A program made the translations under genes and the position numbers. A DNA stretch of 32,000 bases from Zymomonas mobilis subsp. mobilis ATCC 10988 (GTDB lineage Bacteria; Pseudomonadota; Alphaproteobacteria; Sphingomonadales; Sphingomonadaceae), in assembly GCF_000175255.2 (NCBI RefSeq), contig NC_017262.1, positions 1,980,001-2,012,000 on the forward strand, in the 5' to 3' direction. The notes beneath the pieces are model-generated. The model saw nothing but the letters and a program-made list of their open reading frames with translations. It did not search any database and was not told the origin of the DNA. Below, in pieces: positions 15,317-31,990 of this stretch (position 1 is the stretch's first letter; each line of letters starts with the position of its first letter).

Positions 15317-16021
15317 TTAAGCCTGCTGGCCTTCCAATTCGGCATGTTCTGCTTCGCGCAAGATGTAACCGCGTCCCCAGACCGTTTCGATATAATTTTC
15401 GTCAGGATAGGCTTTGTTCAGCTTTTTCCGCAGTTTGCAGACAAAGACATCAATAATTTTTAATTCCGGTTCATCCATCCCACCATAAAGATGGTTCAAG
15501 AACATTTCTTTCGTGATGGTGGTGCCTTTTCTCAAAGACAGCAATTCCAATATGGCATATTCTTTACCGGTCAGATGAACAGGCTTGTTATCAATCTCGA
15601 CTGTTTTACTATCAAGATTGACGGTTAAACGGCCTGTTTTAATAATTGACTGGGAATGGCCTTGGGAACGGCGAACAACGGCTTGAATACGGGCAATCAA
15701 TTCTTCCTGATGGAAAGGCTTGGTCAAATAATCATCAGCCCCAAAGCCCAAAGCCCGCACTTTGGATTCCATTTCGGCAATACCAGACAATACAATGATC
15801 GGCGTTTTTACCTGCGCCGTCCGTAACGTCTTTAATACTTCATAGCCATGCATATCGGGCAAATTGAGATCAAGACAAATGATATCATAATCATACAGCT
15901 TGCCCAGATCGATGCCTTCTTCGCCAAGGTCTGTCGTATAGACATTGAAACGCTTTTTCGTCAGCATCAATTCGATAGATTTCGCCGTTGTCGGCTCATC
16001 TTCTATCAATAAAACACGCAT
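15317..16021 (-). CDS. ctrA: Cell-cycle response regulator CtrA (OmpR-type)
   Basis: MRVLLIEDE...[14 protein letters not shown]...LSG...[10 protein letters not shown]...[48 protein letters not shown]...[10 protein letters not shown] is near-diagnostic for CtrA. Confidence 0.93.
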
Positions 16022-16207: not shown

Positions 16208-16903
16208 TCAAGATTCTGTTTTATATTTTAACTCTAAAAAGCGCTGCTGAGTAGCCAATTTATCAAGATCATGATGGGCAAGCTCTTCTTCTATGCGACC
16301 TAGTGCCTGATTGATCACATCTAGGCCGGTTGCAAGCTGTGAATCAGGGCTATCCAGACCAGCGCGTTTCTGTGTTCTTAAGTTAACGGGTATTTCGACA
16401 TAGCCTTTAACCAATTCCGGCATTTCTTCACTGACCAATTTTCGCATCTGGGTCGCTGTCGGATCATCTTCCGGCAGTTTTTCGGTGACAGAGGACAAAT
16501 GCGATAATTTATCAAGGATCGATTCTGCCAAAGGACGGGCAGGCGGCGGCAAAGCCTGTTTCTGGGCTGACAGCCATGAAGCGGCCTGCGACGGTAATTG
16601 TTTTAAAGACTGTTTTTGCAAATTTTCAATTTTAACCGGACGCGGCAAGGGCAGGGTCAAAGGTGCCAAAATACTCCCCAAGACCAAGGCCGCAAAAGTC
16701 AGGATAATACCAGAAATGCCCAGCGGATGGATAAAACCAATAATAAAGGCGGCCAGTATAATCGCCGCATCCGTTACACATAGCCGCTTTAGTCGCCGTC
16801 CTAACAGGCTTTTCTTTGCAAAGGCGCGGCTTGCTTCTTGACCATCCCGAAGCCTTGCCAAAACAGCCTGCGCTTCCAAAAGTATTTGCTGATTACTGGC
16901 CAT
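16208..16903 (-). CDS. XpaC-like membrane protein (5-bromo-4-chloroindolyl phosphate hydrolysis protein family)
   Basis: 231 aa with two adjacent TM helices followed by a coiled C-terminal region. It starts 9 nt after the telA-like stop. This is the same pairing as yaaN-xpaC in Bacillus. The call rests on architecture and context only. Confidence 0.5.
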   Translation of the reverse strand: MASNQQILLEAQAVLARLRDGQEASRAFAKKSLLGRRLKRLCVTDAAIILAAFIIGFIHPLGISGIILTFAALVLGSILAPLTLPLPRPVKIENLQKQSLKQLPSQAASWLSAQKQALPPPARPLAESILDKLSHLSSVTEKLPEDDPTATQMRKLVSEEMPELVKGYVEIPVNLRTQKRAGLDSPDSQLATGLDVINQALGRIEEELAHHDLDKLATQQRFLELKYKTES

Positions 16904-16912
16904 TTATTTCCC

Positions 16913-18187
16913 TTACAAAGGCTTGAACGGATCTCCTGTCGGAACCGTTTTAGAAGCCGCCGCCGCAGGCGGTGCATTTTTGTCCTCTGCCTGCATCAAC
17001 TGTTTCATTGCTTGGTCTTGACCTTGGCCGGAACCTTGCGCCCGCGCAATATAACCGCGTGATTTCTCAATTTCGTCAGACAAGACATCGACCGTCTGTT
17101 TCATCGAAGACAAGGCTTGGACTTTATATTGGTCAATAGAATCCATGGTTGCATAGATATTGCTAAAGGCACGCTTCAGAACATCGAGTGGGATCGTTGC
17201 CGATGCCGCTTGTTTCTGAATCTCTCCGGTCTGGTTTCTTAACATTTCGCCAGTGGAATCGATAATATTCGCCGTCGTGCTGTTCAAAGCATTGATCTGT
17301 TCCAGAACAAGCTTTTGGTTGGTCAAAGCCTGCGCCACGGTCACGGCTGTTTTTAGGGCGGCCACTGTCGTTGTCGAAGCGCGATCAACCCCTTTAATCA
17401 GTTCGATATTATTCTTTCTGACCAGATCCAATGCCAGATAGCCCTGAACACTCACGGCTAATTGGGTCAAAAGATCTGTTACCCGTTGCCGGACATAGAA
17501 CAGCGCGCTTTCCCGCAAGGTCTTGGCTTTGGCTGGATCGCTGATGTCCAGCTCATGACTTTTGGCTTCCAACTGGCTATCCAGCGTTTTCGCCATATAA
17601 ATCATCTGTTCCAGACGTTCCAACGTCGCCCATAAGGTCTGGCGCTCAACGTCAATCGCCGCATTATCTTTCAACAATTCATCCTTACCGCTTTCAAGAC
17701 TGGTAAGAATGGTGCCGATATGGGATTGCGCCGATTTATAGCTGTCGAAATAATCGCGGAGCTTGTTTCCGAAAGGAATAATACCAAAAATCTTCTTGGG
17801 CGCCGTTAAATCACCGCGTTTTCCGGGATCAAGGTCTTCGATCACCCGCCGCAACTGGGCAAGATTGGAACCAATGGGGCTACTGCCATCCATGGCTTTA
17901 ACCGGACGATCCAAAAAACGATTAGATTGATTGGCGGCTTCCCGAATTTCATTGCGTCCCAGATTGATGATAGAATCAACTTTTTTGCCAAATTCGGGGC
18001 TATTGGGATTTTCGGCCACCAGTTCTTCAATAAAGCCGCTCACCTTGGCTTCAAGCTGGCTTTTTTTGCCATCATCCAATGGGACTAAACCATCGGCTTT
18101 TTCTGTCGAAACGGGTGGAACAGGATCAGGGGGAGTTAGCTTTAAATCAGCATTATTCTGACCAGCGGCATTATTTTCTGTAACCAT
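16913..18187 (-). CDS. telA: TelA / YaaN-family toxic anion resistance protein
   Basis: About 424 aa, all-helical, with characteristic N-terminal blocks (VSGFIEELVAENPNSPEFGKKVDSIINLGRNEIREAANQSNRFLDRPVKAM). ATG at 18187 is preceded by GGGGAG. Confidence 0.8.
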   Translation of the reverse strand: MVTENNAAGQNNADLKLTPPDPVPPVSTEKADGLVPLDDGKKSQLEAKVSGFIEELVAENPNSPEFGKKVDSIINLGRNEIREAANQSNRFLDRPVKAMDGSSPIGSNLAQLRRVIEDLDPGKRGDLTAPKKIFGIIPFGNKLRDYFDSYKSAQSHIGTILTSLESGKDELLKDNAAIDVERQTLWATLERLEQMIYMAKTLDSQLEAKSHELDISDPAKAKTLRESALFYVRQRVTDLLTQLAVSVQGYLALDLVRKNNIELIKGVDRASTTTVAALKTAVTVAQALTNQKLVLEQINALNSTTANIIDSTGEMLRNQTGEIQKQAASATIPLDVLKRAFSNIYATMDSIDQYKVQALSSMKQTVDVLSDEIEKSRGYIARAQGSGQGQDQAMKQLMQAEDKNAPPAAAASKTVPTGDPFKPL

Positions 18188-18270
18188 CAAGCGGCACTCC
18201 CCAACTATCCATCTGTAAAATCTGGCCTTTTATTTCCGGTCTTCAAGAGACGAAAAGAAATTTAACGCTT

Positions 18271-19191
18271 TTACCTGACCCATTCCAAACCGATTTCATT
18301 ATAAATGTCGCGATCTTCATCCCATCTCGGGCTGACTTTAACATGCAGGAATAGATGAACTTTGCAGCCTAAAATCTGGGATAATTCGGCACGGGCTTTA
18401 CTGCCGATTTCTTTCAGCCTTGCACCATGATGACCGACAACAATCGCCTTTTGGGAATCGCGGGCGATCAAGATTTGCTGATGAATAGCGACCGAACCAT
18501 CTTTCCGCTCTTCATATTTTTCGGTTTCAACTGCGGCGGCATAGGGTAATTCATCATGAAGCTGTAAAAAGATTTGTTCGCGGGTAATTTCTGCTGCCAA
18601 CATACGATCCGTGACATCTGACACCTGATCTTCTGGGAAATGCCATGGGCTTTCCGGCATCATATCCGCCAAAGAACGCTTAAGATCGGCGACCCCATCT
18701 CCGGTTGTGGCCGAAACCATAAACAAGGCTTCCGGCTTGATCGCTTCATAAAGCTTTTGTGCCAAAGCCAGTAATTCAGCTTTCGGGGTGATATCGACTT
18801 TATTCAGAATAATAACTTTGGGTTCTTTACGGGCGGCAACAGCTTCCACCAAAGGTTCAATTCGGCGGGTAAGACCAGAAGAGGCATCCACCACCAAAGC
18901 CACGAGATTGGCACCTTCGGCACTGCCCCAAGCGGCGGCAACCATCGCGCGATCAAAACGCTTTTTCGGGGTAAAAATACCGGGCGTATCCACTAACAAG
19001 ATCTGGGTCTGATCCTGCAAGGCAATACCCATTAAACGGGCGCGGGTTGTCTGCGCCTTGGGGCTGATAATGGCAATTTTCTGGCCAACCAACGCATTAA
19101 CAAGGGTTGATTTACCAGCATTCGGCGCACCCACAATGGCGACCAGACCGCAATGCTGGGTATTCTCTGAAGGCGTATTCGTATCTTTCAT
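18271..19191 (-). CDS. era: GTPase Era
   Basis: G1 GAPNAGKST, G3 DTPG, G4 NKVD, and a C-terminal KH domain (IVVGHHGARLKEIGSKAR). Confidence 0.93.
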   Translation of the reverse strand: MKDTNTPSENTQHCGLVAIVGAPNAGKSTLVNALVGQKIAIISPKAQTTRARLMGIALQDQTQILLVDTPGIFTPKKRFDRAMVAAAWGSAEGANLVALVVDASSGLTRRIEPLVEAVAARKEPKVIILNKVDITPKAELLALAQKLYEAIKPEALFMVSATTGDGVADLKRSLADMMPESPWHFPEDQVSDVTDRMLAAEITREQIFLQLHDELPYAAAVETEKYEERKDGSVAIHQQILIARDSQKAIVVGHHGARLKEIGSKARAELSQILGCKVHLFLHVKVSPRWDEDRDIYNEIGLEWVR

Positions 19192-19386: not shown

Positions 19387-20727
19387 TTACCGACCTAATT
19401 TGGTCAGACTGCGATCAAGCGCTCCGGTTAACCAATCAATATCGCCACTCTGGAAGGCCAGAGGTGGCCGCAATTTCAGAACATTACCATAAGGCCCAGC
19501 AACCGAGGTCAGAACATGTTCGTCGCGAAGCGCTTCGATCAGATCGAGTGCCAATTCTTTATCCGGTTCTTTGCTGTTGCGATCTTTCACCAATTCAAAA
19601 CCGATGAACAGACCGGCACCCCGAACATCTCCAACGGATTCATGCTTATCTTGCAGTTTTTTCAGTTCACCCAAAAGTTCAGCCCCGACTTTTTGGGTAT
19701 GGGTCTGAAGATTTTCTTCCTTGATGACATTCAAAACGGCAGAGGCCGCCGCCATTGAAACCGGATTGCCGCCGAATGTGTTGAAATAAGGGACATGGTT
19801 ACTAAAGGCTTCCATCACTTCCTTGCGGGCGAAAAGACCGGAAACCGGAATACCATTCCCCATCGGTTTTCCCGTTGTTACGACATCGGGAATTAAGCCA
19901 TGCCGCCCAAATCCCCAGAAAGATTCACCGGTTCTAACAAAGCCCGGCTGCACTTCATCGGCAATGAAAATACCGCCATTTTTGTGGACGACATCAATCG
20001 CCTCTTTCAAAAATCCGGCTTCACCTGGCAAGACACCATCCGAAGAGAAAATCGAATCCGCCATAAATCCGGCAAATTTGATGCCATGGGCAGCCATATC
20101 ATCAATCTGCTTTTGCATTTCGGCGGCAAACCATGCACCGGCATCTTGTCCTGCCAAACGATAATGGTCAGGCGCAGGCACCAAACGCGTATTCGGGGAC
20201 AAATTTTGACCGCTACCAAGGGCAGGGGATGCGCCAGAGGTCAGAAAACTGGTACCGTGATAGGATTCCTGCGTCACGATAATGCCGGTTCCACCCGACC
20301 ATTCACATGCGATCCGCATTGCCAGATCATTGGCTTCGGATCCGGTGCACATATACATAGCGCGATTGATTTCTTCCGGCATGGTTGCCAAAATCGCTTC
20401 GGAATAATCAAGGATCGTTTCATGCAAATAGCGGGTATGGGTATTCAACCGGCCCATCTGCTCATAAACCGCTTCGATAACGGCAGGATGGCAATGACCG
20501 ATGCTGGCAACATTGTTATAAACATCCAGATATTTATCACCATTGGCATCCCATAAATAAGCCCCTTTTCCGCGCACCAGATGGACAGGACGGCGATAAA
20601 AAAGGCGATAGGATGCGCCCAAAAGATCTTTACGGCGCTCGGTCAGGGAACGCGTTGCCTCATCCAAAGCGGCGGCATGTTCATCCCGAAAACTGTTCGT
20701 GTCCATAATGGTAGAGCGACTTGACAC
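19387..20727 (-). CDS. Class-III PLP enzyme of the ETNPPL/PHYKPL (AGXT2L1/2) branch: putative O-phospho-amino-alcohol phospho-lyase
   Basis: 446 aa. GTG start with AAGGAG 7 nt upstream. Motifs: NNVASIGHCHP, GSEANDLAMR, ADEVQPGFVRTGESFWGF, PDVVTTGKPMGNGIPV, FNTFGGNPVS, NVLKLRPPLAF. Confidence 0.7.
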   Translation of the reverse strand: MSSRSTIMDTNSFRDEHAAALDEATRSLTERRKDLLGASYRLFYRRPVHLVRGKGAYLWDANGDKYLDVYNNVASIGHCHPAVIEAVYEQMGRLNTHTRYLHETILDYSEAILATMPEEINRAMYMCTGSEANDLAMRIACEWSGGTGIIVTQESYHGTSFLTSGASPALGSGQNLSPNTRLVPAPDHYRLAGQDAGAWFAAEMQKQIDDMAAHGIKFAGFMADSIFSSDGVLPGEAGFLKEAIDVVHKNGGIFIADEVQPGFVRTGESFWGFGRHGLIPDVVTTGKPMGNGIPVSGLFARKEVMEAFSNHVPYFNTFGGNPVSMAAASAVLNVIKEENLQTHTQKVGAELLGELKKLQDKHESVGDVRGAGLFIGFELVKDRNSKEPDKELALDLIEALRDEHVLTSVAGPYGNVLKLRPPLAFQSGDIDWLTGALDRSLTKLGR

Positions 20728-20946
20728 AGTATTCTCCTTTTCAGGATTAAAAAGAAAACTAATGTTCCAATTATGTCAGTCGTCCTTGAAACAAACTTGA
20801 CGGCAGAAGACATTCTTAATTTTTTTATGTCAAAAGTTTCGTCTTTTATTTCTTTGCGGTCAAAAAAGGGTCGTCTCCAGCCAAGTTATAAATCTCAACC
20901 TCTTCTTATCATGACTCCAGAAAATAAACGTTCAGGAGTCTGCCAC

Positions 20947-21957
20947 ATGAATTCCCGACATGCCGATAATCTCGACACCTCCATTCTTTCCCAATTGGCA
21001 GCGCAAGCAATGGAGGCCTATCCTAAAGCCTATCAGGGAAAAATCCGGCTTTTAACGCGTTCGGAAAATGCGACTTTTCACATTGCGGCATCTTCCGGTG
21101 AAAATTATGCCCTGCGCCTGCACCGTCCCCATTATCACGATAAACAAAGCATTACGGGCGAATTGGCATGGCTGAAAGCGTTACAGGAAGATATCGGTTT
21201 AACGGTGCCGCAAGCTATTCCTGACCGCGATGGGGAAGTGATTCAAACCCTAAAAGCGCCCGATGGCGCGCTGCGCTATGCGGTGCTTTTCAACTGGGTC
21301 GAAGGCGAAATGCCAACGGCTGATCTTGACCCTTCGCTGTTCCAAAGACTGGGCGAAGTGACCGCCCATCTGCATCAGCATAGCCAACGCTGGGAAAAGC
21401 CGGATAATTTCAAACGTCTTATCTGGAATCATGAAAATATGGTGGGTGCCGACGGCTATTGGGGCGATTGGCGCGCCACTCCGGGGCTAGATTCAAACGG
21501 CATTATCATTATGCGTGAAGCTATGGAGCAAATCGGGCAATCCTTGGAAAAATTTGGCCAATCTTCCGACCGTTACGGCCTTATCCATGCGGATTTAAGA
21601 TTAACCAATATTCTTATCCATGAAGGCGATACAAGGGCGATTGACTTTGATGACTGCGGCACTGGATGGTTTCTGCATGATCTCGCTGCGGCGATCAGTT
21701 TTGAAGAACATAATCCGGCCGCGCCTTTATGGGTCGAAAATTGGCTGAAAGGCTATGATCGAGTTCAGTCCCTTTCTCGGGAAGAAATTGATATTCTTCC
21801 AGCGCTTTTCGCCCAAAGAAGAATCCAAATGACGGCATGGGTTGGATCTCATGCGGATACCGATATGGCGCGCAGTTTAGGGGGCGACTGGCTGGCACAT
21901 ACGGTGCGCTTATGCCGTGACTATCTTGACGGAAAAACACCGCTTGGTGCTGCCTAA
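20947..21957 (+). CDS. APH/choline-kinase-fold phosphotransferase (hydroxylysine-kinase / amino-alcohol-kinase-like)
   Basis: Brenner motif LIHADLRLTNILI and the Mg-binding motif IDFDD. I chose the ATG at 20947 (AGGAG 8 nt upstream). The tracked start at 20773 adds a non-conserved-looking 58 aa. Confidence 0.75.
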   Translation: MNSRHADNLDTSILSQLAAQAMEAYPKAYQGKIRLLTRSENATFHIAASSGENYALRLHRPHYHDKQSITGELAWLKALQEDIGLTVPQAIPDRDGEVIQTLKAPDGALRYAVLFNWVEGEMPTADLDPSLFQRLGEVTAHLHQHSQRWEKPDNFKRLIWNHENMVGADGYWGDWRATPGLDSNGIIIMREAMEQIGQSLEKFGQSSDRYGLIHADLRLTNILIHEGDTRAIDFDDCGTGWFLHDLAAAISFEEHNPAAPLWVENWLKGYDRVQSLSREEIDILPALFAQRRIQMTAWVGSHADTDMARSLGGDWLAHTVRLCRDYLDGKTPLGAA

Positions 21958-21993
21958 AAAACGATCCAATCCAGACTCTCTTTTCAGACTTCC

Positions 21994-22043
21994 AATCTCT
22001 TCCTTCATAAAATTTCACTATTTTATAAGGAAGAGATTTTTTT
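21994..22043 (+). terminator. Strong intrinsic terminator after the kinase gene
   Basis: Perfect 12-bp stem AATCTCTTCCTT / AAGGAAGAGATT with a 21-nt loop, followed by TTTTT. Confidence 0.85.
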
Positions 22044-22160
22044 AAATTTTATATTGCAATTTGATGACATAATATGATGTTATCCATTTAGGATATAATT
22101 TTGGGCATATTCATAGACTCATTATCCTGATGAACCGCATGCCAAGGAAAGTCTGGAAAT

Positions 22161-23231
22161 ATGACATCTTCTCTAAATACAGCTTTCTCGAAAACCCTCT
22201 CTTCCTTTGAAGAAGTCCATCATGGTGTTCTTGCCGCCGCTGGAAGCGGACTTGGCGATTTTATTAAAAAAACAGGCGGCGATGCTGACCGTGTCTTTGG
22301 GTCATGCGGCGTGGATCCGGCGATTATGGAACGCCCAACACACAGCCTTAGCCTCACCAATTATTGCCGCTTAATGGAAGAAGCCGCAATCGATTCCCAA
22401 AATGGTAATTTCGGGTTGCATTATGGCAAGCAATTCCAGCCACAAAATCTTGGGTTAATCGGTTATATCGGTCTCTCTTCTCCGACATTGGGTGACGCCC
22501 TTTCCAATGTTGCAAAAGATTTTCACTGGCACCAACATGATACCTTAACCCGCTTTGTAAAACGGGAAAATCAATGGCATTTTGAATATCAGGTCAGACA
22601 TGGTGCCATTACAAGACGGCGGCAGGATGCCGAGCTTTCTATGGGGATGATTCTGAATATCATCCGCAGCGCGCTTGGTTCTAAATGGACGCCGCAAGAG
22701 GTCAATTTTGAACATTATCGGCCAGAACAGGCACATGAACATGAAAAAGTGTTTGGTGCGGCAGTCTGGTTTGAACAACCCTGCAACTCTATTGTGCTTT
22801 CTGAAAAAGACTTGATGCGCCCGATGCCGGGTTATGAACCGGTCTTATTAACGGTAATGCGGGAAACCATCCGCCGTCTAAATCGCCATAATGTGCCGCA
22901 ATCATTCCCTGAACGGGTGAGGGCGATCATCCGTATCATGCTGCCCCAAGACGACTTTTCTCTTGAAAAGATTTCCGAAAAAATGGCGATGACGCCTTGG
23001 TCTTTGCAACGGCGGTTGAAAGAAGAAAATGTCACTTTTCTCACGTTGATAGATTCCGTCCGCAAAGAAATGGCTATCGACTATATGAAGCAACCTCATC
23101 TAACGATTTCAGATATTACTTTTATGCTGGGCTATTCCGAGGTCTGCGCGCTTTCACGGGCTTTTCGGCGCTGGTTCGGTGTCAGCCCCCGTGCATGGCG
23201 TAAAAATTATGCCAGTAATGCCAAGGCCTGA
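22161..23231 (+). CDS. AraC/XylS-family transcriptional regulator with an N-terminal ligand-binding domain
   Basis: 356 aa. The C-terminal double HTH (ISDITFMLGYSEVCALSRAFRRWFGVSPRAWR) follows a roughly 230-aa sensor domain. AAGGAAAG Shine-Dalgarno sequence. Confidence 0.85.
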   Translation: MTSSLNTAFSKTLSSFEEVHHGVLAAAGSGLGDFIKKTGGDADRVFGSCGVDPAIMERPTHSLSLTNYCRLMEEAAIDSQNGNFGLHYGKQFQPQNLGLIGYIGLSSPTLGDALSNVAKDFHWHQHDTLTRFVKRENQWHFEYQVRHGAITRRRQDAELSMGMILNIIRSALGSKWTPQEVNFEHYRPEQAHEHEKVFGAAVWFEQPCNSIVLSEKDLMRPMPGYEPVLLTVMRETIRRLNRHNVPQSFPERVRAIIRIMLPQDDFSLEKISEKMAMTPWSLQRRLKEENVTFLTLIDSVRKEMAIDYMKQPHLTISDITFMLGYSEVCALSRAFRRWFGVSPRAWRKNYASNAKA

Positions 23232-23550
23232 ATAAAAGGTCGCTGATAACACATAATAGGGCTTTGTTTTGATCCTGCACCGGAATTTTTCCGTGCGGGA
23301 TAATTTTTATACCGCCTCTCGCATCCTTATTTCGTCCCTCTCACTTACCAGAAAACCCTTTTGATAAGCCGCTTTTGGGTTATTCCTCTTAATCGACAGA
23401 GTTCTTTAAAAACGGTAAATTATCACGAAAGATTAAAATTTATTTTCAATAAACAACAAATTGTCATTAAGGGTCAAGTTTATATGCTTTCATTGCCGAT
23501 ATGGTTTTCTTGTGACTATAGAAAATCCGGTAAGGGGAGAGTCCTCCAAG

Positions 23551-24960
23551 ATGCCAGAAAAATCTCCGAAGCTTTCAAAAACGCTTAGCTCTTTTCATCT
23601 CTGGGGCATCGCCGTTGGCCTTGTGATCTCAGGTGAATATTTTGGCTGGAGCTATGGCTGGGCGACCGCGGGAACCATGGGTTTTCTGATCGCGACGGTT
23701 ATTGTTGCGGCTATTTATACCAGTTTCATTTTCAGCTTTACAGAACTCACCTGCTCTATTCCGCAGGCAGGGGGGCCTTTCGCCTATAGCTTTCGGGCTT
23801 TAGGTAAATGGGGTGGTGCCATTGCCGGTATGGCAACCTTGGTTGAATTTTTATTCGCCCCTCCGGCTATTGCTCTAGCCATTGGTTCCTATCTCAATGT
23901 GCAATTTCCGTCACTTTCTCCCAAAATGGCGGCGGCCTGTGCTTATATCGTTTTCATGGCTTTGAATATCGTGGGTGTCAGAATCGCCGCGACATTCGAG
24001 CTTTTCATCACTGTTGCCGCTATTTTTGAATTACTGGTTTTCATGGGGGTCGTTGCACCTGCTTTTTCATGGGAACAATTCCTGCATGACGGCTGGGGTG
24101 TTGCCAGCCATTTCGACATTCAGGCCATTGGCGGGATATTTGCTGCTGTGCCTTTTGCGATCTGGTTCTTTCTGGCAATTGAAGGGGTCGCTATGGCCGC
24201 TGAAGAAGCCAAAAATCCCCGCCGTTCTATCCCGATCGCTTATACCGCTGGTATCTTAACGCTGGTTTCTCTTGCTTTCGGTGTGATGGTTTTTGCTGGT
24301 GGTTCTATGGATTGGCATCAGCTTGCCAATTTGAACGATCCACTACCTCAAGCGATGAAACATGTGGTCGGCGCGCATAGCGGCTGGTTGCATATGCTTG
24401 TTTTCCTCGGGTTGTTCGGGCTAGTTTCTTCCCTGCATGGTATCATCATGGGCTATGGTCGCCAGATTTTTGCCTTGGCAAGGGCAGGTTTTCTTCCGGC
24501 AACGCTTGGGAAATTACATATCAAACTGCAAACCCCTTATGCCGCGACTATCGCCGGTGGTTTAGTCGGTATCGCCGCTATCTTTGCCGATGATGTTCTT
24601 TCTTTCGGCGGTCATTCTCTGACGGCTATTCTGGTAACAATGTCGGTTCTTGGCTCGCTTACCATGTATGTGTTGAGCATGGCCAGCCTGTTCCGCTTGC
24701 GTCAAACCATGCCGGATTTACCACGCCCTTACAAAGCGCCTCTTTATCCTTTCTTGCCTGCCTTGGCGCTGATTGGGGCTTTCTTCCTGCTCGCCGCCGT
24801 TATTTACTATAATGCCGGCATTTCCTTCATCTATGCGCTTTTAATGTGCATTGCCTGCCCGCTTTGCCTTTACAGCTACAAGCGGAGCCAAAACAAAAAA
24901 ACAGAAGAAAACGATATCACGACATCTGCTATTCTCGCTGCCGAGGGGGCGGAAGAATAA
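23551..24960 (+). CDS. eat: APC-superfamily permease, Eat-type ethanolamine permease
   Basis: 469 aa from the ATG at 23551. 12-TM profile. The N-terminal block LWGIAVGLVISGEYFGWSYGW...FSFTELTCSIPQAGGPFAYS...EFLFAPPAIALAIGSYLNVQ matches the ethanolamine permease family as I remember it. Confidence 0.75.
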   Translation: MPEKSPKLSKTLSSFHLWGIAVGLVISGEYFGWSYGWATAGTMGFLIATVIVAAIYTSFIFSFTELTCSIPQAGGPFAYSFRALGKWGGAIAGMATLVEFLFAPPAIALAIGSYLNVQFPSLSPKMAAACAYIVFMALNIVGVRIAATFELFITVAAIFELLVFMGVVAPAFSWEQFLHDGWGVASHFDIQAIGGIFAAVPFAIWFFLAIEGVAMAAEEAKNPRRSIPIAYTAGILTLVSLAFGVMVFAGGSMDWHQLANLNDPLPQAMKHVVGAHSGWLHMLVFLGLFGLVSSLHGIIMGYGRQIFALARAGFLPATLGKLHIKLQTPYAATIAGGLVGIAAIFADDVLSFGGHSLTAILVTMSVLGSLTMYVLSMASLFRLRQTMPDLPRPYKAPLYPFLPALALIGAFFLLAAVIYYNAGISFIYALLMCIACPLCLYSYKRSQNKKTEENDITTSAILAAEGAEE

Positions 24961-25004
24961 GCGGTCAACGCAGCGACTGTTTTTGTGAAAAAAGGATGTC
25001 CGAC

Positions 25005-26438
25005 ATGCGCTATTACACCTTATCTTTTTGCTTTGGTTGCTGTCTTATCGGCATGGTCGGCGTGCAATCGCCTGCCTTGGCAGAAGTCCAAACGGGCGAT
25101 ACGCCAACGCCACCGGCCGAACTTTTGCAAAAGGCTGCTCCTGACAAAGCTGACTATGAACAGTCACAAGACCCTGATTTACCCGCTCTTGAAGCGGGAA
25201 ATCTGTTTCATAGTAAAGGCGGAAAACTTTCTTATTGGGACGGCCTTGTCGGTCATGCCATGATCGAAGGGGGTGCGAATGGAAACCCTGTTACCCATTC
25301 AGGCCGCAACTTCGGGCAGTATTTTACTGATAAATCCAATACAGGTACGCTTAACCAGATCACGGCTTCTATTTCTCATCCCGTAACCCCAATCGGAAAA
25401 GGCTATGGCATCGGCTTTGTTGTGGAAATGCTCTACGGTTCCGATGCGCGGGTCGATCCTACCTTAGGCATGGGGGACGGCGCTTTAAAAGGCGGCTATC
25501 AATGGGCGCCAACTCAGGCGCATATTGATGTTCATACCCCTTGGCTTTTCAAACATGGTATCGATTTCCAAATCGGGCAGATGTATGGCTTGATGGGGGT
25601 CGAAGGTATCCCAGCCCTTGCACGTCCCTTCTACAGCTACAACTACAGTTCGGATTATATCGTTCCCTTTGAAACGGTAGGGATCGTCGCGACAATGCAT
25701 GTCTCTCGCGATATTGATTTCCTGCTTGGTATTGATTCCGGTAACGCGTCTACTTTCGGTAATGCGACCGTCAATAAACAACCCAAAGGTTATGCGGGTC
25801 TCGTCTTTAAAAACCTGATGGATAACAAAATGACCATCCGCGCCATTTCCCATTTAGGGCCCGCGGGTAACTCCGGCACCGCTGTAACCTCGGCTGATGG
25901 CTGGACGAGTGCTGGTATCGGTTCGGCTGCCAATAAACTGATGCAATATAATGTTGAAGTCAGCATGAGCTATCGCTTCACGGATAAAGTCACCTTTACA
26001 GAAGACATCATCGTCGATCGGGATGAATCCATCCGCGACACCGCTTATGGCTTCACCTCTTATGTGGCATGGGATTTACGGAAAAACCTAACTCTGAATT
26101 TCCGTGGAGAAATCTTCCGTGATAATACTGGCGGGGTCATTACCCAATTTATTGGTAGCGATTCCTACAGAAGTTACCTCAGAAATCGGCCTTATGCTTA
26201 TTACAGCGCCCCCGCGACCACTTATGGCGAGCTGACCGCTGGCGTGTCATGGAAACCGCCGGTTATCAACGATCATCTGGGGAAGGGGACTTTCACTTTA
26301 CGGCCAGAACTCCGACTGGATAGATCTTTAAACGGCACACATCCCTTTAACAGAAGTGCTTCGGTCATGAATCCGGTGGTTACAAACGGAACCCGAAATA
26401 TGTTCTGGGTCAGTTGTGACGCGATCCTCAGTTTCTGA
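25005..26438 (+). CDS. Outer-membrane beta-barrel porin
   Basis: Signal peptide MRYYTLSFCFGCCLIGMVGVQSPALA-EV. Alternating beta-strand pattern rich in G, Y and aromatic residues. C-terminal ...DAILSF ends with Phe. It starts 45 nt after the permease stop. The tracked start at 24846 overlaps the permease. Confidence 0.7.
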   Translation: MRYYTLSFCFGCCLIGMVGVQSPALAEVQTGDTPTPPAELLQKAAPDKADYEQSQDPDLPALEAGNLFHSKGGKLSYWDGLVGHAMIEGGANGNPVTHSGRNFGQYFTDKSNTGTLNQITASISHPVTPIGKGYGIGFVVEMLYGSDARVDPTLGMGDGALKGGYQWAPTQAHIDVHTPWLFKHGIDFQIGQMYGLMGVEGIPALARPFYSYNYSSDYIVPFETVGIVATMHVSRDIDFLLGIDSGNASTFGNATVNKQPKGYAGLVFKNLMDNKMTIRAISHLGPAGNSGTAVTSADGWTSAGIGSAANKLMQYNVEVSMSYRFTDKVTFTEDIIVDRDESIRDTAYGFTSYVAWDLRKNLTLNFRGEIFRDNTGGVITQFIGSDSYRSYLRNRPYAYYSAPATTYGELTAGVSWKPPVINDHLGKGTFTLRPELRLDRSLNGTHPFNRSASVMNPVVTNGTRNMFWVSCDAILSF

Positions 26439-26507: not shown

Positions 26508-26583
26508 TGGTGCCGGGTGAGGGACTCGAACCCCCATGGTCGCTACTTACAAGGTAGGTGCCTAACCATTCGGCCAACCCGGC
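26508..26583 (-). tRNA. tRNA, best read as tRNA-Thr(UGU), with encoded CCA and an irregular anticodon stem
   Basis: Reverse complement: GCCGGGU-UG-GCC-GAAUGGUUA-GGC-A-CCUAC-CUUGUAA-GUAGC(G)-ACCAU-GGGGG-UUCGAGU-CCCUC-ACCCGGC-A-CCA. The 7-bp acceptor stem, T arm and loop CUUGUAA fold well. The anticodon stem needs a C.C mismatch or a bulged C, and the D stem has only 3 bp. Confidence 0.65.
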
Positions 26584-26736: not shown

Positions 26737-27477
26737 TTGGCTGATAAACGCTTTTTTGGAACAAAGACGTTTCCTAATCAAGAAAAGGCTTTAAAAGCTA
26801 AGATTATGAATAATGATGCTTTCATAAGCTGGATTGAAAAAAATTTAGGCCATCGGCCTAAAGATCCGGCCTTGTTTTTACGAGCCATGACTCATCCCAG
26901 TCATGGCAACAGCGATTATCAAAGATTAGAGTTTTTAGGCGACCGTGTTTTAGGATTGGTCATTGCCAATTGGTTATACGACCTGTTCCCTCGCGAACCG
27001 GAAGGCAAATTGTCCCGACGATTAAACAGCCTTGTTTCAGGGGCTAGCTGCGCCAGCATTGCGCGGATTGTCGGACTTCCTCAATGGCTCCGTCTGGGAA
27101 AACAGGCGCGCGATGACGGCGCGGCGGCCTCTGACAATGTCTTGGGCGATGTGATGGAAGCCATGATTGGTGCCATCTTCTTGGAATCCGGTATCGAAGC
27201 CGCAGGCAAACTTATTCATAAATACTGGGCGCCTTTGGTGACGGGACAGGAATCCGCCCCGAAACATCCGAAATCGGCTTTGCAGGAATGGGCAGCCGCC
27301 CATAACCGCCGCCCGCCTGTTTATGAAATTGTCAGTCGGACAGGCCCCCAGCATAATCCTTGCTTTACCATTCAGGTTTCTATTGCCGGTGTCGGTGAAG
27401 CCAGTGCCGAAGGCTCTTCAAAGCAGGAAGCCCAAACGGCTGCTGCTCAAGCGCTTTTGGATATTTTGGCGCAATAA
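26737..27477 (+). CDS. rnc: Ribonuclease III
   Basis: Signature ERLEFLGDRVLGLVIA, catalytic LGDVMEAMIGAIFLESG, and a C-terminal dsRBD. The TTG at 26737 has GGAGG 8 nt upstream. The alternative ATG at 26806 gives a more canonical N-terminus but has no Shine-Dalgarno sequence. Confidence 0.9.
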   Translation: MADKRFFGTKTFPNQEKALKAKIMNNDAFISWIEKNLGHRPKDPALFLRAMTHPSHGNSDYQRLEFLGDRVLGLVIANWLYDLFPREPEGKLSRRLNSLVSGASCASIARIVGLPQWLRLGKQARDDGAAASDNVLGDVMEAMIGAIFLESGIEAAGKLIHKYWAPLVTGQESAPKHPKSALQEWAAAHNRRPPVYEIVSRTGPQHNPCFTIQVSIAGVGEASAEGSSKQEAQTAAAQALLDILAQ

Positions 27478-27761: not shown

Positions 27762-28274
27762 CTATGCCATGTTATGAACATAGCGGGATGTTTCCGCATT
27801 TTTCATCAAAAGATTGTAGATCCACGGCGATCCATTGCCACTTTCATGGGTTTCAGCCAGATGATGGCAAGCCAAATAGGTCATTGCCGGATTTAACCGA
27901 CGCGGTTCCCAAGCCATAAAATCACTAATTTGTGATGGATCAGTCGGAAAATTTTTCTCACTGACCATCGCTTTCGCCAAGGTCAAAGCGTCATCAGCTG
28001 GCCGCCATGCCATCCAAAAGCTGTCAAAAACGGCGTATAATTTGGCATGGGGGGCAATGGAATGACCATCATCCTGAAATAACACCATTTCAGAGCCTAA
28101 ATCATCAATACCGTCTTTGACATCTTCTTTTGATAATCCGGTGCGTTTAACCAATTCATCCATGGAAATGGGCTGATCGAATTCGCCCCCATGATAGCTG
28201 GTTTGAACAAAAACTTGAGCCACAGCCTTACAATTCGCGGAATAGGCAGAGGCTTCTGATGTCTGGTTAACCAT
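27762..28274 (-). CDS. Hypothetical protein (orphan, no family recognised)
   Basis: 170-aa ORF with coding-like composition. It is flanked by a terminator-like hairpin and a long AT-rich upstream spacer. A possible winged-helix-like stretch is ISMDELVKRTGLSKEDVKDGIDDLG. Confidence 0.5.
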   Translation of the reverse strand: MVNQTSEASAYSANCKAVAQVFVQTSYHGGEFDQPISMDELVKRTGLSKEDVKDGIDDLGSEMVLFQDDGHSIAPHAKLYAVFDSFWMAWRPADDALTLAKAMVSEKNFPTDPSQISDFMAWEPRRLNPAMTYLACHHLAETHESGNGSPWIYNLLMKNAETSRYVHNMA

Positions 28275-30149: not shown

Positions 30150-30998
30150 TTAGCGGTCTTCGCTAATCCGATGATATAATTCTGGTCGCCGATCACGGAA
30201 AAAGCCGAAAGCCGCGCGATGTTGTCTTATTTGCTCAATATCAAAATGAGCGACCAAAACGCCGCTTTCATCTTTGCCAAAGGCTTGCACTAAATCGCCA
30301 CGCTGATCGGCAATAAAGCTATGACCATAAAAAGATAGCGTAGCTTCCTGACCAATCCGGTTCGATGCGATGACAGGCACGACATTAGAAACGGCATGAC
30401 CAATCATAGCTCGCCGCCACAAACGGCTGGTATCCAGATCGGGATCATGGGGCTCATTTCCAATCGCTGTCGGGAAAAAGAGCAACTCAGCACCCATCAG
30501 CATCATGGCACGCGCCGTTTCAGGATACCATTGATCCCAACAGATACCGACACCTATCTTGATGCCGCCACAATCCCAGACTTTAAAACCGCTATTACCG
30601 GGGCGGAAATAGAATTTTTCTTCATAGCCGGGGCCATCGGGAATATGACTTTTCCGGTAAACGCCCATAACCTCGCCATCTGAATTGATCATGGCAAGGC
30701 TGTTATAATAATGGGGCGGATCGCTTTCAAAAAAGCTGGTTGGAATAGTCACTTTCAACCGCTTAGCTAGCTTTTGCATCGCTAAGACAACGGGATGTTT
30801 TTCCACTGGCTTGGCGCGTGCAAAACAGCTCTCGTCTTCGGTCGCACAGAAATAATGCCCTTCAAATAATTCGGGCGGTAAAATAATTTTGGCACCTTGC
30901 GCCGCCGCTTCTTCGACCAATACTGAAACACGATCAATATTGGTCTGGATATCATCCGTCAAAGCCAGCTGTAATGCCGCTACAGTGATTTCAGTCAT
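30150..30998 (-). CDS. aguB: N-carbamoylputrescine amidase (CN-hydrolase/nitrilase superfamily)
   Basis: MTEITVAALQ..., PELFEGHYFC, YRKSHIP and GVGICWDQWYPE (Glu-Lys-Cys triad context). ATG at 30998 sits 11 nt after the aguA stop, with AGGA upstream. Confidence 0.85.
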   Translation of the reverse strand: MTEITVAALQLALTDDIQTNIDRVSVLVEEAAAQGAKIILPPELFEGHYFCATEDESCFARAKPVEKHPVVLAMQKLAKRLKVTIPTSFFESDPPHYYNSLAMINSDGEVMGVYRKSHIPDGPGYEEKFYFRPGNSGFKVWDCGGIKIGVGICWDQWYPETARAMMLMGAELLFFPTAIGNEPHDPDLDTSRLWRRAMIGHAVSNVVPVIASNRIGQEATLSFYGHSFIADQRGDLVQAFGKDESGVLVAHFDIEQIRQHRAAFGFFRDRRPELYHRISEDR

Positions 30999-31009
30999 CA
31001 GTAATTCCT

Positions 31010-31990
31010 TCAGGCTGGCCATTGCTGGGAAATACAATGGAAGCTGCCACCCCCTGTCAAAATATGACCGGCTGGCAAGGCGACGACTTTCCGGCTTGGG
31101 AATAAGGCTTCCAAGGCTTGAACAATCGCGCTATCATTTTTGGCACCATAAACCGGAACAACAACGACCTTGTTCCCAATATAGAAATTCATATAGGAAG
31201 CCGGAACGACTTCATCATCAATCGTAATCCGTCCGGTTGAGGGGATGCGGGTTACTTTTACGCCAAACTCTGTCGCGATTTGAGCCGCTTGGTCATAGAC
31301 TTCCCGATTAGGATCATCCTGATCCGTCGCGATAGGGACGACCAAATGATTTTCACCGACAAAACGAGCAAGGTTATCGACATGCCCATCAGTATGGTCA
31401 TTATGCAGGCCTTTTCTCAGCCACAACACACGATCATAACCCAGATCATTCCGCAAATGACGGGCAATATCGCCCCGCGATAATTCAGGATTGCGGTTTG
31501 GATTTAACAGACATTCTTCGGTTGTAACGACCAATCCATGACCATCACCATCAATGGAACCGCCTTCCAAAACCCAATTTTTTTCTAAAACGGGCAGGGC
31601 TGTATCTTTGGCAAGATCACGTCCAATAGTCTGATCGCCATCAAGATTATATTTTCCGCCCCAACCATTGAAACGGAATAAAGCCAGCGCCTTTTTATCA
31701 CCCTCTTTGACGAAAAGCGGGGCGTTATCTCTCAACCAGATATCACCGAAAGGATGGCAGATAACCTCAATATCCGATCCCGCCATTTTTACAGCTTGAT
31801 CGGCTGCTTCTTTATGGGCGGCAACCAGATAAACTTTTTCCCCTTCGCCCTGCGCTGCAACAGCCTTGGCAAAAGCAACTACCTCGGCTTGTGCCGGTTC
31901 CAAATCTTCAAGCCAAAGAGAAGCATCACTAGGGAAACCGATCCAAACCGCATCATGCGGCATCCACTCGGCAGGCTGATGGTAAGGCAT
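31010..31990 (-). CDS. aguA: Agmatine deiminase
   Basis: N-terminal PAEWMPHDAVWIGFP, then DIWLRDNAP and HTDGHVDNLARF, and the C-terminal catalytic Cys block GGGSFHCISQQWP. Confidence 0.88.
   Translation of the reverse strand: MPYHQPAEWMPHDAVWIGFPSDASLWLEDLEPAQAEVVAFAKAVAAQGEGEKVYLVAAHKEAADQAVKMAGSDIEVICHPFGDIWLRDNAPLFVKEGDKKALALFRFNGWGGKYNLDGDQTIGRDLAKDTALPVLEKNWVLEGGSIDGDGHGLVVTTEECLLNPNRNPELSRGDIARHLRNDLGYDRVLWLRKGLHNDHTDGHVDNLARFVGENHLVVPIATDQDDPNREVYDQAAQIATEFGVKVTRIPSTGRITIDDEVVPASYMNFYIGNKVVVVPVYGAKNDSAIVQALEALFPSRKVVALPAGHILTGGGSFHCISQQWPA

Follow-up and report, generated by a model that had tools for sequence, protein, structure and literature searches.

Which genes would allow Zymomonas mobilis to draw nitrogen from ethanolamine? 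In a Phenotype MicroArray study, ethanolamine was a nitrogen source that strain ZM4 "appeared to utilize" (PMC2836469), and a paper on a 2020 metabolic model states that the genes for ethanolamine use are not known (PMC7451989), for which reason the phenotype was left out of that model. We approached this question through a stretch of 32,000 nucleotides from Z. mobilis subsp. mobilis ATCC 10988 (contig NC_017262.1, positions 1,980,001 to 2,012,000), here called the window, in which a first-pass annotation had proposed that five genes form a B12-independent, compartment-free module for the catabolism of ethanolamine or a related amino alcohol, with ethanolamine serving as a nitrogen source. The latter proposal agrees with a use that has been reported for ZM4 and to which genes have not been assigned (PMC2836469, PMC7451989). 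Sequence and gene context likewise support the proposed kinase/phospho-lyase route, and, taking the pathway as a whole, we consider it probable that the cluster would provide a B12-independent and shell-free way of using ethanolamine, mainly as a nitrogen source.

The window belongs to a Z. mobilis chromosome of the ZM4 type, in which the module corresponds to ZMO1377-ZMO1382; ZMO1377, ZMO1378 and ZMO1380 have the same gene lengths and names as their counterparts in the window. Scans for open reading frames (ORFs) and domains recovered all five genes at the positions given to them in the first-pass annotation. The gene that should carry out the decisive step lies on the minus strand (19387-20727; ZMO1382) and encodes a class-III pyridoxal phosphate (PLP) enzyme of 446 aa, with a PF00202 domain (257 bits) spanning residues 48-439. 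When this protein was compared with all PDB sequences, the top matches were human ETNPPL (6TOR, 354 bits) and an Arthrobacter protein (5G4I, 318 bits), which carry the PDB names ethanolamine-phosphate phospho-lyase and phospholyase, respectively. The next-best chain was a racemase at 185 bits, and true transaminases reached at most 172 bits. Over its full length the enzyme is 42% identical to 6TOR and 38% identical to 5G4I, values that bracket the 39% identity between these two. The five motifs quoted in the first-pass annotation are all present, and each aligns with its counterpart in human ETNPPL, among them ADEVQ, FNTFGGNPVS and GKPMGNG, the lysine of which is residue 287. No curated transaminase cut-off in NCBIfam was reached, and the best NCBIfam matches were to the C-terminal parts of PRK06148 and PRK06149, which are kinase-aminotransferase fusions of about 1000 residues. 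By sequence comparison, then, the enzyme groups with the phosphoethanolamine phospho-lyases, to the exclusion of transaminases, as the first-pass assignment to the phospho-lyase branch had it, and it is predicted to catalyze the 1,2-elimination of phosphate in the manner of ETNPPL and 5G4I. A text search for the Arthrobacter phospholyase under A1RDF1 gave no paper.

Back to back with this gene, across a divergent control region of 219 bp (20728-20946), lies a gene on the plus strand for a kinase of the aminoglycoside phosphotransferase (APH) fold (20947-21957; 336 aa; PF01636, 89 bits; presumably ZMO1381). Its start was placed at the ATG at 20947, 9 nt past an AGGAG, and its homologues are 334-336 aa long; considering this spacing and these lengths, a mechanically called ORF of 394 aa starting at 20773 was rejected as an over-extension. 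The length of the divergent spacer follows from this start and is the same as first annotated. The best PDB match of the kinase is the Mycobacterium structure 6EF6 (227 bits, 38% identity), followed by amicoumacin kinase at 87 bits. The PDB labels 6EF6 merely as an aminoglycoside phosphotransferase; we take it to be the M. smegmatis (Mycobacterium smegmatis) enzyme that phosphorylates (S)-1-amino-2-propanol. In the Zymomonas kinase both catalytic motifs are preserved, HADLRLTN at residue 214 and DFD at residue 233. Matches to protein kinase and homoserine kinase models in NCBIfam are weak, homoserine kinase scoring 36-48 bits against cut-offs above 255. The suggestion that an APH-fold partner kinase accompanies the lyase is thus borne out, with 6EF6 far above antibiotic and homoserine kinases, and the protein appears to be a putative ethanolamine/aminopropanol kinase. 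In addition, the kinase matches the N-terminal parts of the same PRK06148 and PRK06149 models whose C-terminal parts match the lyase; at the level of sequence models, these fusions are therefore a gene-fusion link between the two predicted activities.

Downstream of the kinase, on the same strand, follow an AraC regulator (22161-23231; Arabinose_bd, PF12625, 181 bits, and HTH_18, PF12833; ZMO1380), an Eat permease (23551-24960; ZMO1378) and a BBP2/OmpL-like porin (25005-26438; ZMO1377). The latter two are adjacent, as first described, with a gap of 44 nt in place of the 45 originally given. The Eat-type assignment holds, given that the permease scores 568 bits against the curated equivalog cut-off of 382 for TIGR00908; it has the same length as ZMO1378, which is annotated as an ethanolamine transporter. 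The porin matches PF07642 at 129 bits (gathering threshold 26) and is 100% identical to a Z. mobilis protein, ZMO1377 being annotated as hypothetical. Read directly, its N-terminus is signal-like, running MRYYTLSFCFGCCLIGMVGVQSPALA up to a boundary before EV, with ALA as its last three residues.

The homologues of this porin, which gave the strongest evidence for ethanolamine as the substrate, are confined almost wholly to Acetobacteraceae, where they connect the module to a different ethanolamine system. In five of nine Acetobacteraceae contexts, namely those of Gluconobacter japonicus, Acetobacter thailandicus, Asaia bogorensis, Swaminathania salitolerans and Acetobacter aceti, a porin orthologue (53-64% identity) is the last gene of a eutB-eutC-eat-porin operon. 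The permease encoded in the G. japonicus operon is 78% identical to the Zymomonas Eat over 443 residues. A divergent AraC gene of the same domain type is also found at the eut operons of G. japonicus and Acetobacter thailandicus, and the G. japonicus regulator shares 41% identity with the AraC of the window. Because the eat-porin pair ends eutB-eutC-eat-porin operons in five Acetobacteraceae, the araC/eat/porin set looks, judging from its relatives, like an ethanolamine uptake and control cassette, in which the porin would probably conduct ethanolamine or other small amines. The shared eat-porin pair also backs the proposal that kinase and lyase replace the cobalamin-dependent EutBC: there is direct comparative support that in Zymomonas these two genes stand where Acetobacteraceae relatives carry EutBC. 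A scan of the 26 main ORFs of the window detected no eut, pdu or microcompartment shell-protein families, as the first-pass annotation had stated.

One genome per species was scanned for close lyase relatives, which gave 379 stretches, of which the best 80 were kept; 17 loci entered a detailed neighborhood analysis. A kinase homologue lies within 10 kb of the lyase at 23 of the 80 loci. At all 17 detailed loci, from alpha- and gammaproteobacteria and with several gene orders, lyase, kinase and AraC genes are linked, with the AraC gene invariably downstream of the kinase, and Eat is present at 13. Given these two linkage counts, the clustering of the module genes is not due to chance. The orders found, written with a slash that in Zymomonas stands for the divergent spacer, are lyase / kinase-araC-eat-porin in Zymomonas; araC-kinase / lyase in Gluconacetobacter and Halomonas; araC-kinase / eat-lyase in Pantoea ananatis, Klebsiella indica, Rosenbergiella and Zymobacter; lyase, then eat / kinase-araC in Celerinatantimonas; and, in Acinetobacter, the lyase and, not far from it, araC-(HAD-like gene)-kinase / eat. 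Pectobacterium aroidearum has the compact form lyase-eat / kinase-araC. At the remaining lyase loci among the 80, mostly from Erwinia, Pantoea and Tatumella, no kinase was seen near the lyase. That these solitary-lyase genomes of Erwinia and Pantoea have no kinase was considered and rejected, as kinase orthologues are present in both genera and in several of the species concerned; in Erwinia tasmaniensis, for example, eat / kinase-araC forms a second locus, separate from that of the lyase.

Taken together, these genes outline the following route. The BBP2 porin would let ethanolamine through the outer membrane, and Eat would carry it across the inner one. The APH-fold kinase, by homology, would then use ATP to phosphorylate the hydroxyl group, yielding O-phosphoethanolamine, which the PLP enzyme, going by its similarity to the two phospho-lyases in the PDB, should cleave into acetaldehyde, ammonium and phosphate. 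In Zymomonas the acetaldehyde might be converted to ethanol or excreted. The AraC regulator is probably responsive to the amine or the aldehyde and would turn the genes on when either appears. 1-Amino-2-propanol is a plausible second substrate or co-substrate.

Several points weigh against this reading. The nearest kinase structure, 6EF6, is on our assumption an aminopropanol kinase and not an ethanolamine kinase. The Eat family name is itself based largely on gene neighborhood. Four of the nine Acetobacteraceae contexts of porin homologues are not eut contexts (one is a methylamine dehydrogenase context, the other three are uninformative), and linkage of the porin to the kinase/lyase module is seen in Zymomonas only. 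A shared operator was not established, the three intergenic regions yielding a single weak 11-mer, AWAAACTTGAY. EutB and EutC were sought among the window ORFs only, so that their genome-wide absence rests on statements in the literature. One such statement, in a comparison of Z. mobilis with an E. coli model, lists ethanolamine ammonia-lyase among the reactions deleted from that model (PMC3004842), an indirect passage that we read as meaning that Z. mobilis lacks the enzyme. Another source mentions a cobalamin adenosyltransferase gene in this species. The growth evidence comes from a single Phenotype MicroArray well, and the 2020 authors did not confirm the result anew (PMC2836469, PMC7451989). 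A 2023 model is said to use ethanolamine. Papers naming genes of the cluster give only changes in expression under stress, changes in protein abundance and one point mutation. In the literature searched, we found no paper on a function for ZMO1381 or ZMO1382, and none describing bacterial kinase/lyase genes for ethanolamine.

The alternative that survives best concerns the substrate. Aminopropanol and aminoacetone have reportedly been proposed as substrates of a Mycobacterium microcompartment pathway, and the main substrate could accordingly be 1-amino-2-propanol, or aminoacetone once reduced, with propionaldehyde as the product and ethanolamine as at most a side substrate. The identity of the nearest kinase structure fits such a pathway. 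The lyase, in contrast, has as its nearest PDB matches two chains that bear the name of phosphoethanolamine lyases, permease and porin have their orthologues in eutBC operons, and aminopropanol dehydrogenase and shell genes were not found in the window; moreover, it is ethanolamine whose use by ZM4 is reported (PMC2836469). We therefore regard aminopropanol as an unlikely main substrate, and one that would still leave room for ethanolamine as a second.

Less likely still, and in our view improbable, is that the lyase disposes of endogenous O-phosphoethanolamine released by envelope or phospholipid turnover, a housekeeping or detoxification role with no part in nitrogen scavenging. Such a role would suit the many Erwinia and Pantoea genomes in which the lyase is accompanied by a DeoR regulator alone, as well as IncF plasmids of Klebsiella on which the lyase occurs with an ABC importer and a DeoR regulator and with no kinase nearby; given the latter arrangement, the lyase can act on a substrate that is already phosphorylated. 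The Zymomonas lyase, however, has kinase, importer and porin as its partners, and an internal metabolite would require none of them; even E. tasmaniensis keeps its eat / kinase-araC set at a second locus. Finally, we give almost no credence to a reading in which an ordinary omega-transaminase happens to lie next to an unrelated kinase, acting on antibiotics, homoserine or proteins, so that their adjacency is functionally meaningless: it has on its side the public annotation (an aspartate aminotransferase family protein for the PLP enzyme; a phosphotransferase, serine kinase or homoserine kinase for its neighbor) and the weak NCBIfam matches of the kinase to protein and homoserine kinase models, far under their cut-offs, and against it the lead of 130-170 bits held by phospho-lyases, the failure of any transaminase or kinase equivalog cut-off to be reached, the occurrence of the two families as fusions and the linkage of the genes across many bacterial orders. 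Ethanolamine use through kinase and phospho-lyase remains the reading that we prefer.

With regard to expression, direct folding located both hairpins where the first-pass annotation had put them, one after the kinase and one after araC; a simple terminator scan missed both. The first, terminator-like hairpin with its U-run lies 3' of the kinase gene (21994-22044, plus strand), its hairpin part (21994-22038) having a folding energy of -19.9 kcal/mol (z = -6.5; none of 200 shuffles folded equally well) and being followed by UUUUUUU. The second (23272-23301, plus strand) folds at -17.9 kcal/mol (z = -4.0) and is followed by AUAAUUUUUAU. Going by where these hairpins fall, lyase, kinase and araC would each form a transcription unit of their own, with eat-porin as the fourth. 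The spacer between lyase and kinase is conserved at 93% over its whole length relative to Z. mobilis AN0101 and is thus uninformative for operators. Upstream of eat, alignment with AN0101 delimits a conserved promoter/leader region (23415-23550, plus strand), a block of about 135 bp that is approximately 90% identical, with the remaining spacer diverged; it contains GTCAAGTTTAT. An unverified operator candidate is ACAAACTTGAC at 20791-20801 in the divergent region, together with the reverse complement of ATAAACTTGAC upstream of eat. No sigma-54 promoters were detected in the intergenic regions of the module, the number of matches being that of chance, and an Rfam scan of the window returned two tRNAs only and no riboswitch.

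The regulator itself scores 302 bits against the NCBIfam model for QhpR, above the cut-off of 250. Its neighbors in the window are the kinase and eat genes, and no quinohemoprotein amine dehydrogenase (qhp) genes are nearby. Considering that the gene follows the kinase at every one of the 17 loci and that no qhp genes adjoin it, we rejected a QhpR identity; naming 22161-23231 QhpR automatically would probably be wrong, and the protein is better regarded as a related regulator that probably responds to amines. In a study on the response to phenolic aldehydes, one table lists ZMO1380 with the values 5.17, 2.60 and 2.21 (PMC4578398).

Other lyase loci offer further observations on regulation and substrate supply. 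A DeoR-family regulator gene is often divergent from the lyase gene, as in Erwinia rhapontici (L014, 9043-11341), the only such solitary-lyase locus examined, and at four Acinetobacter loci (L029, L032, L033 and L047); in Zymomonas there is no DeoR gene beside the lyase. Regulators of this family usually respond to phosphorylated intermediates, which makes O-phosphoethanolamine a plausible effector. On the conjugative Klebsiella pneumoniae IncF plasmid pCAV1344-250 (L094, 2171-8356), the lyase gene is divergent from the ABC importer and DeoR regulator genes; both Klebsiella and Enterobacter have conjugative plasmids with a 76%-identical lyase, and the L094 stretch, as shown, lists no kinase. 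In such plasmid-borne systems the phosphorylated substrate is possibly imported directly. In Gluconobacter sphaericus (L034, 176-9939), the kinase operon contains, before araC and eat, genes for a TonB-dependent receptor, a phospholipase C and a HAD-IB lipoprotein. The phospholipase C is of the phosphocholine type and has a twin-arginine (TAT) signal (TIGR03396, 758 bits), and the phosphatase-like lipoprotein has a local match to a Pseudomonas phosphorylcholine phosphatase. The same HAD-IB lipoprotein family is carried by the Acinetobacter modules, in which a 436-aa gene that had been considered as a second porin was rejected, having no porin homology and encoding a HAD-IB-like lipoprotein. 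These genes suggest that phospholipid head groups are scavenged upstream, feeding the kinase/lyase route.

As for the porin, a 49%-identical homologue in Acetobacter (L091, 2346-7362) directly follows a methylamine dehydrogenase operon with members of the heavy chain, MauE, redoxin and light chain families. This context fits, and hints at, a channel for small amines generally. The BBP2 subfamily in question may form an outer-membrane channel dedicated to small primary amines, ethanolamine and methylamine among them, and the porin seems to move together with eat as one cassette for uptake.

The module is flanked by era (18271-19191, minus strand) on one side and by a tRNA-Thr gene (26508-26583, minus strand) and then rnc (26737-27477, plus strand) on the other. 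Usually, rnc and era form one co-directional operon; in the window they are divergent, with the 7-kb module and the tRNA-Thr gene in between, and Z. mobilis AN0101 (L001) has the identical era/module/rnc layout. Because era and rnc point apart around the module, an old insertion or inversion at this site is suggested; the GC content of the window gives no sign of recent transfer. Elsewhere in the window, an OmpR-type response regulator gene (15317-16021) lies beyond era, as do, on the minus strand at 16208-18190, a TelA-family gene (314 bits) and then a gene for a protein of 231 aa that matches nothing in Pfam or NCBIfam. Downstream of rnc is an ORF of 170 aa with no Pfam match (27762-28274, minus strand). 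At the right edge (30150-31990, minus strand), two genes share 28 nt, one belonging to the PAD_porph family and the other to the CN_hydrolase family; we read these as agmatine deiminase and N-carbamoylputrescine amidase, a putrescine-forming pair with no relation to the module.

What this adds is modest: a gene set for a Z. mobilis phenotype, a link to Pectobacterium, an eat-porin cassette common to both routes of ethanolamine breakdown, and a candidate amine porin. The module itself is real, and the first-pass annotation implied more novelty than the route has, as both the chemistry and the gene pairing were already known. Kinase/phospho-lyase chemistry has been known since the 1970s, and the human phospho-lyase enzymes were reportedly identified in 2012 (Veiga-da-Cunha). 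ZMO1377-ZMO1382 nevertheless offer a concrete gene set for ethanolamine nitrogen use in Z. mobilis, and the current names "aspartate aminotransferase family protein" (the public annotation of ZMO1382), "phosphotransferase/serine kinase" and "hypothetical protein" are uninformative and could be replaced. The correction would reach beyond this species, close lyase relatives being present in the genomes of at least 379 species, with kinase, AraC and Eat genes also at many of the sampled loci. If our reading is true, Zymomonas would present a clean non-orthologous displacement of the B12-dependent EutBC, with acetaldehyde derived from ethanolamine passing to ethanol, and the four-gene module of Pectobacterium would supply the genes of an amino-alcohol pathway described in Erwinia in 1973. 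That all of this holds jointly, with a dedicated amine-channel porin, EutBC displaced by kinase and lyase, and the genes for the 1973 pathway, we judge to be an evenly balanced proposition. A compact ethanolamine module that is free of B12 and of a shell may also be of use in engineering.

The module can be compared with four known systems. With human ETNPPL (AGXT2L1, 6TOR) and Arthrobacter 5G4I (EC 4.2.3.2), the Zymomonas enzyme has in common the class-III PLP fold and the Schiff-base lysine motifs; it differs in that its gene sits in a bacterial uptake and catabolism cluster, alongside kinase, regulator, permease and porin genes. With M. smegmatis 6EF6 and the RMM aminoacetone microcompartment locus, the module shares the kinase family and the logic of a kinase followed by a phospho-lyase, and kinases of the 6EF6 type are said by Mallette and Kimber (JBC 2018) to be widespread in Proteobacteria, usually next to a candidate phospholyase. 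In contrast to that locus, the Zymomonas window yielded neither shell proteins nor an aminopropanol or aldehyde dehydrogenase, and the Zymomonas transport genes point to ethanolamine and not to aminopropanol. The eutB-eutC-eat operons of Acetobacteraceae have an orthologous Eat (78%), an orthologous porin (53-64%) and a related AraC (41%), and would deliver the same acetaldehyde and ammonium; the catalytic core in Zymomonas, however, would rely on ATP and PLP chemistry, with neither EutB nor EutC in the window. The closest precedent for the route itself is the one that Jones, Faulkner and Turner (Biochem J 1973) reportedly described in Erwinia carotovora, with an inducible amino-alcohol kinase and an O-phosphate phospho-lyase, ethanolamine being, by the same account, the preferred substrate and the aldehyde being excreted. 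To our knowledge, the genes for that pathway have never been identified. Erwinia carotovora is now placed in Pectobacterium, in which we find lyase-eat / kinase-araC. The two reactions, the use of ethanolamine nitrogen and the aldehyde by-product would thus be the same in both organisms, and to these the Zymomonas version adds an outer-membrane porin.

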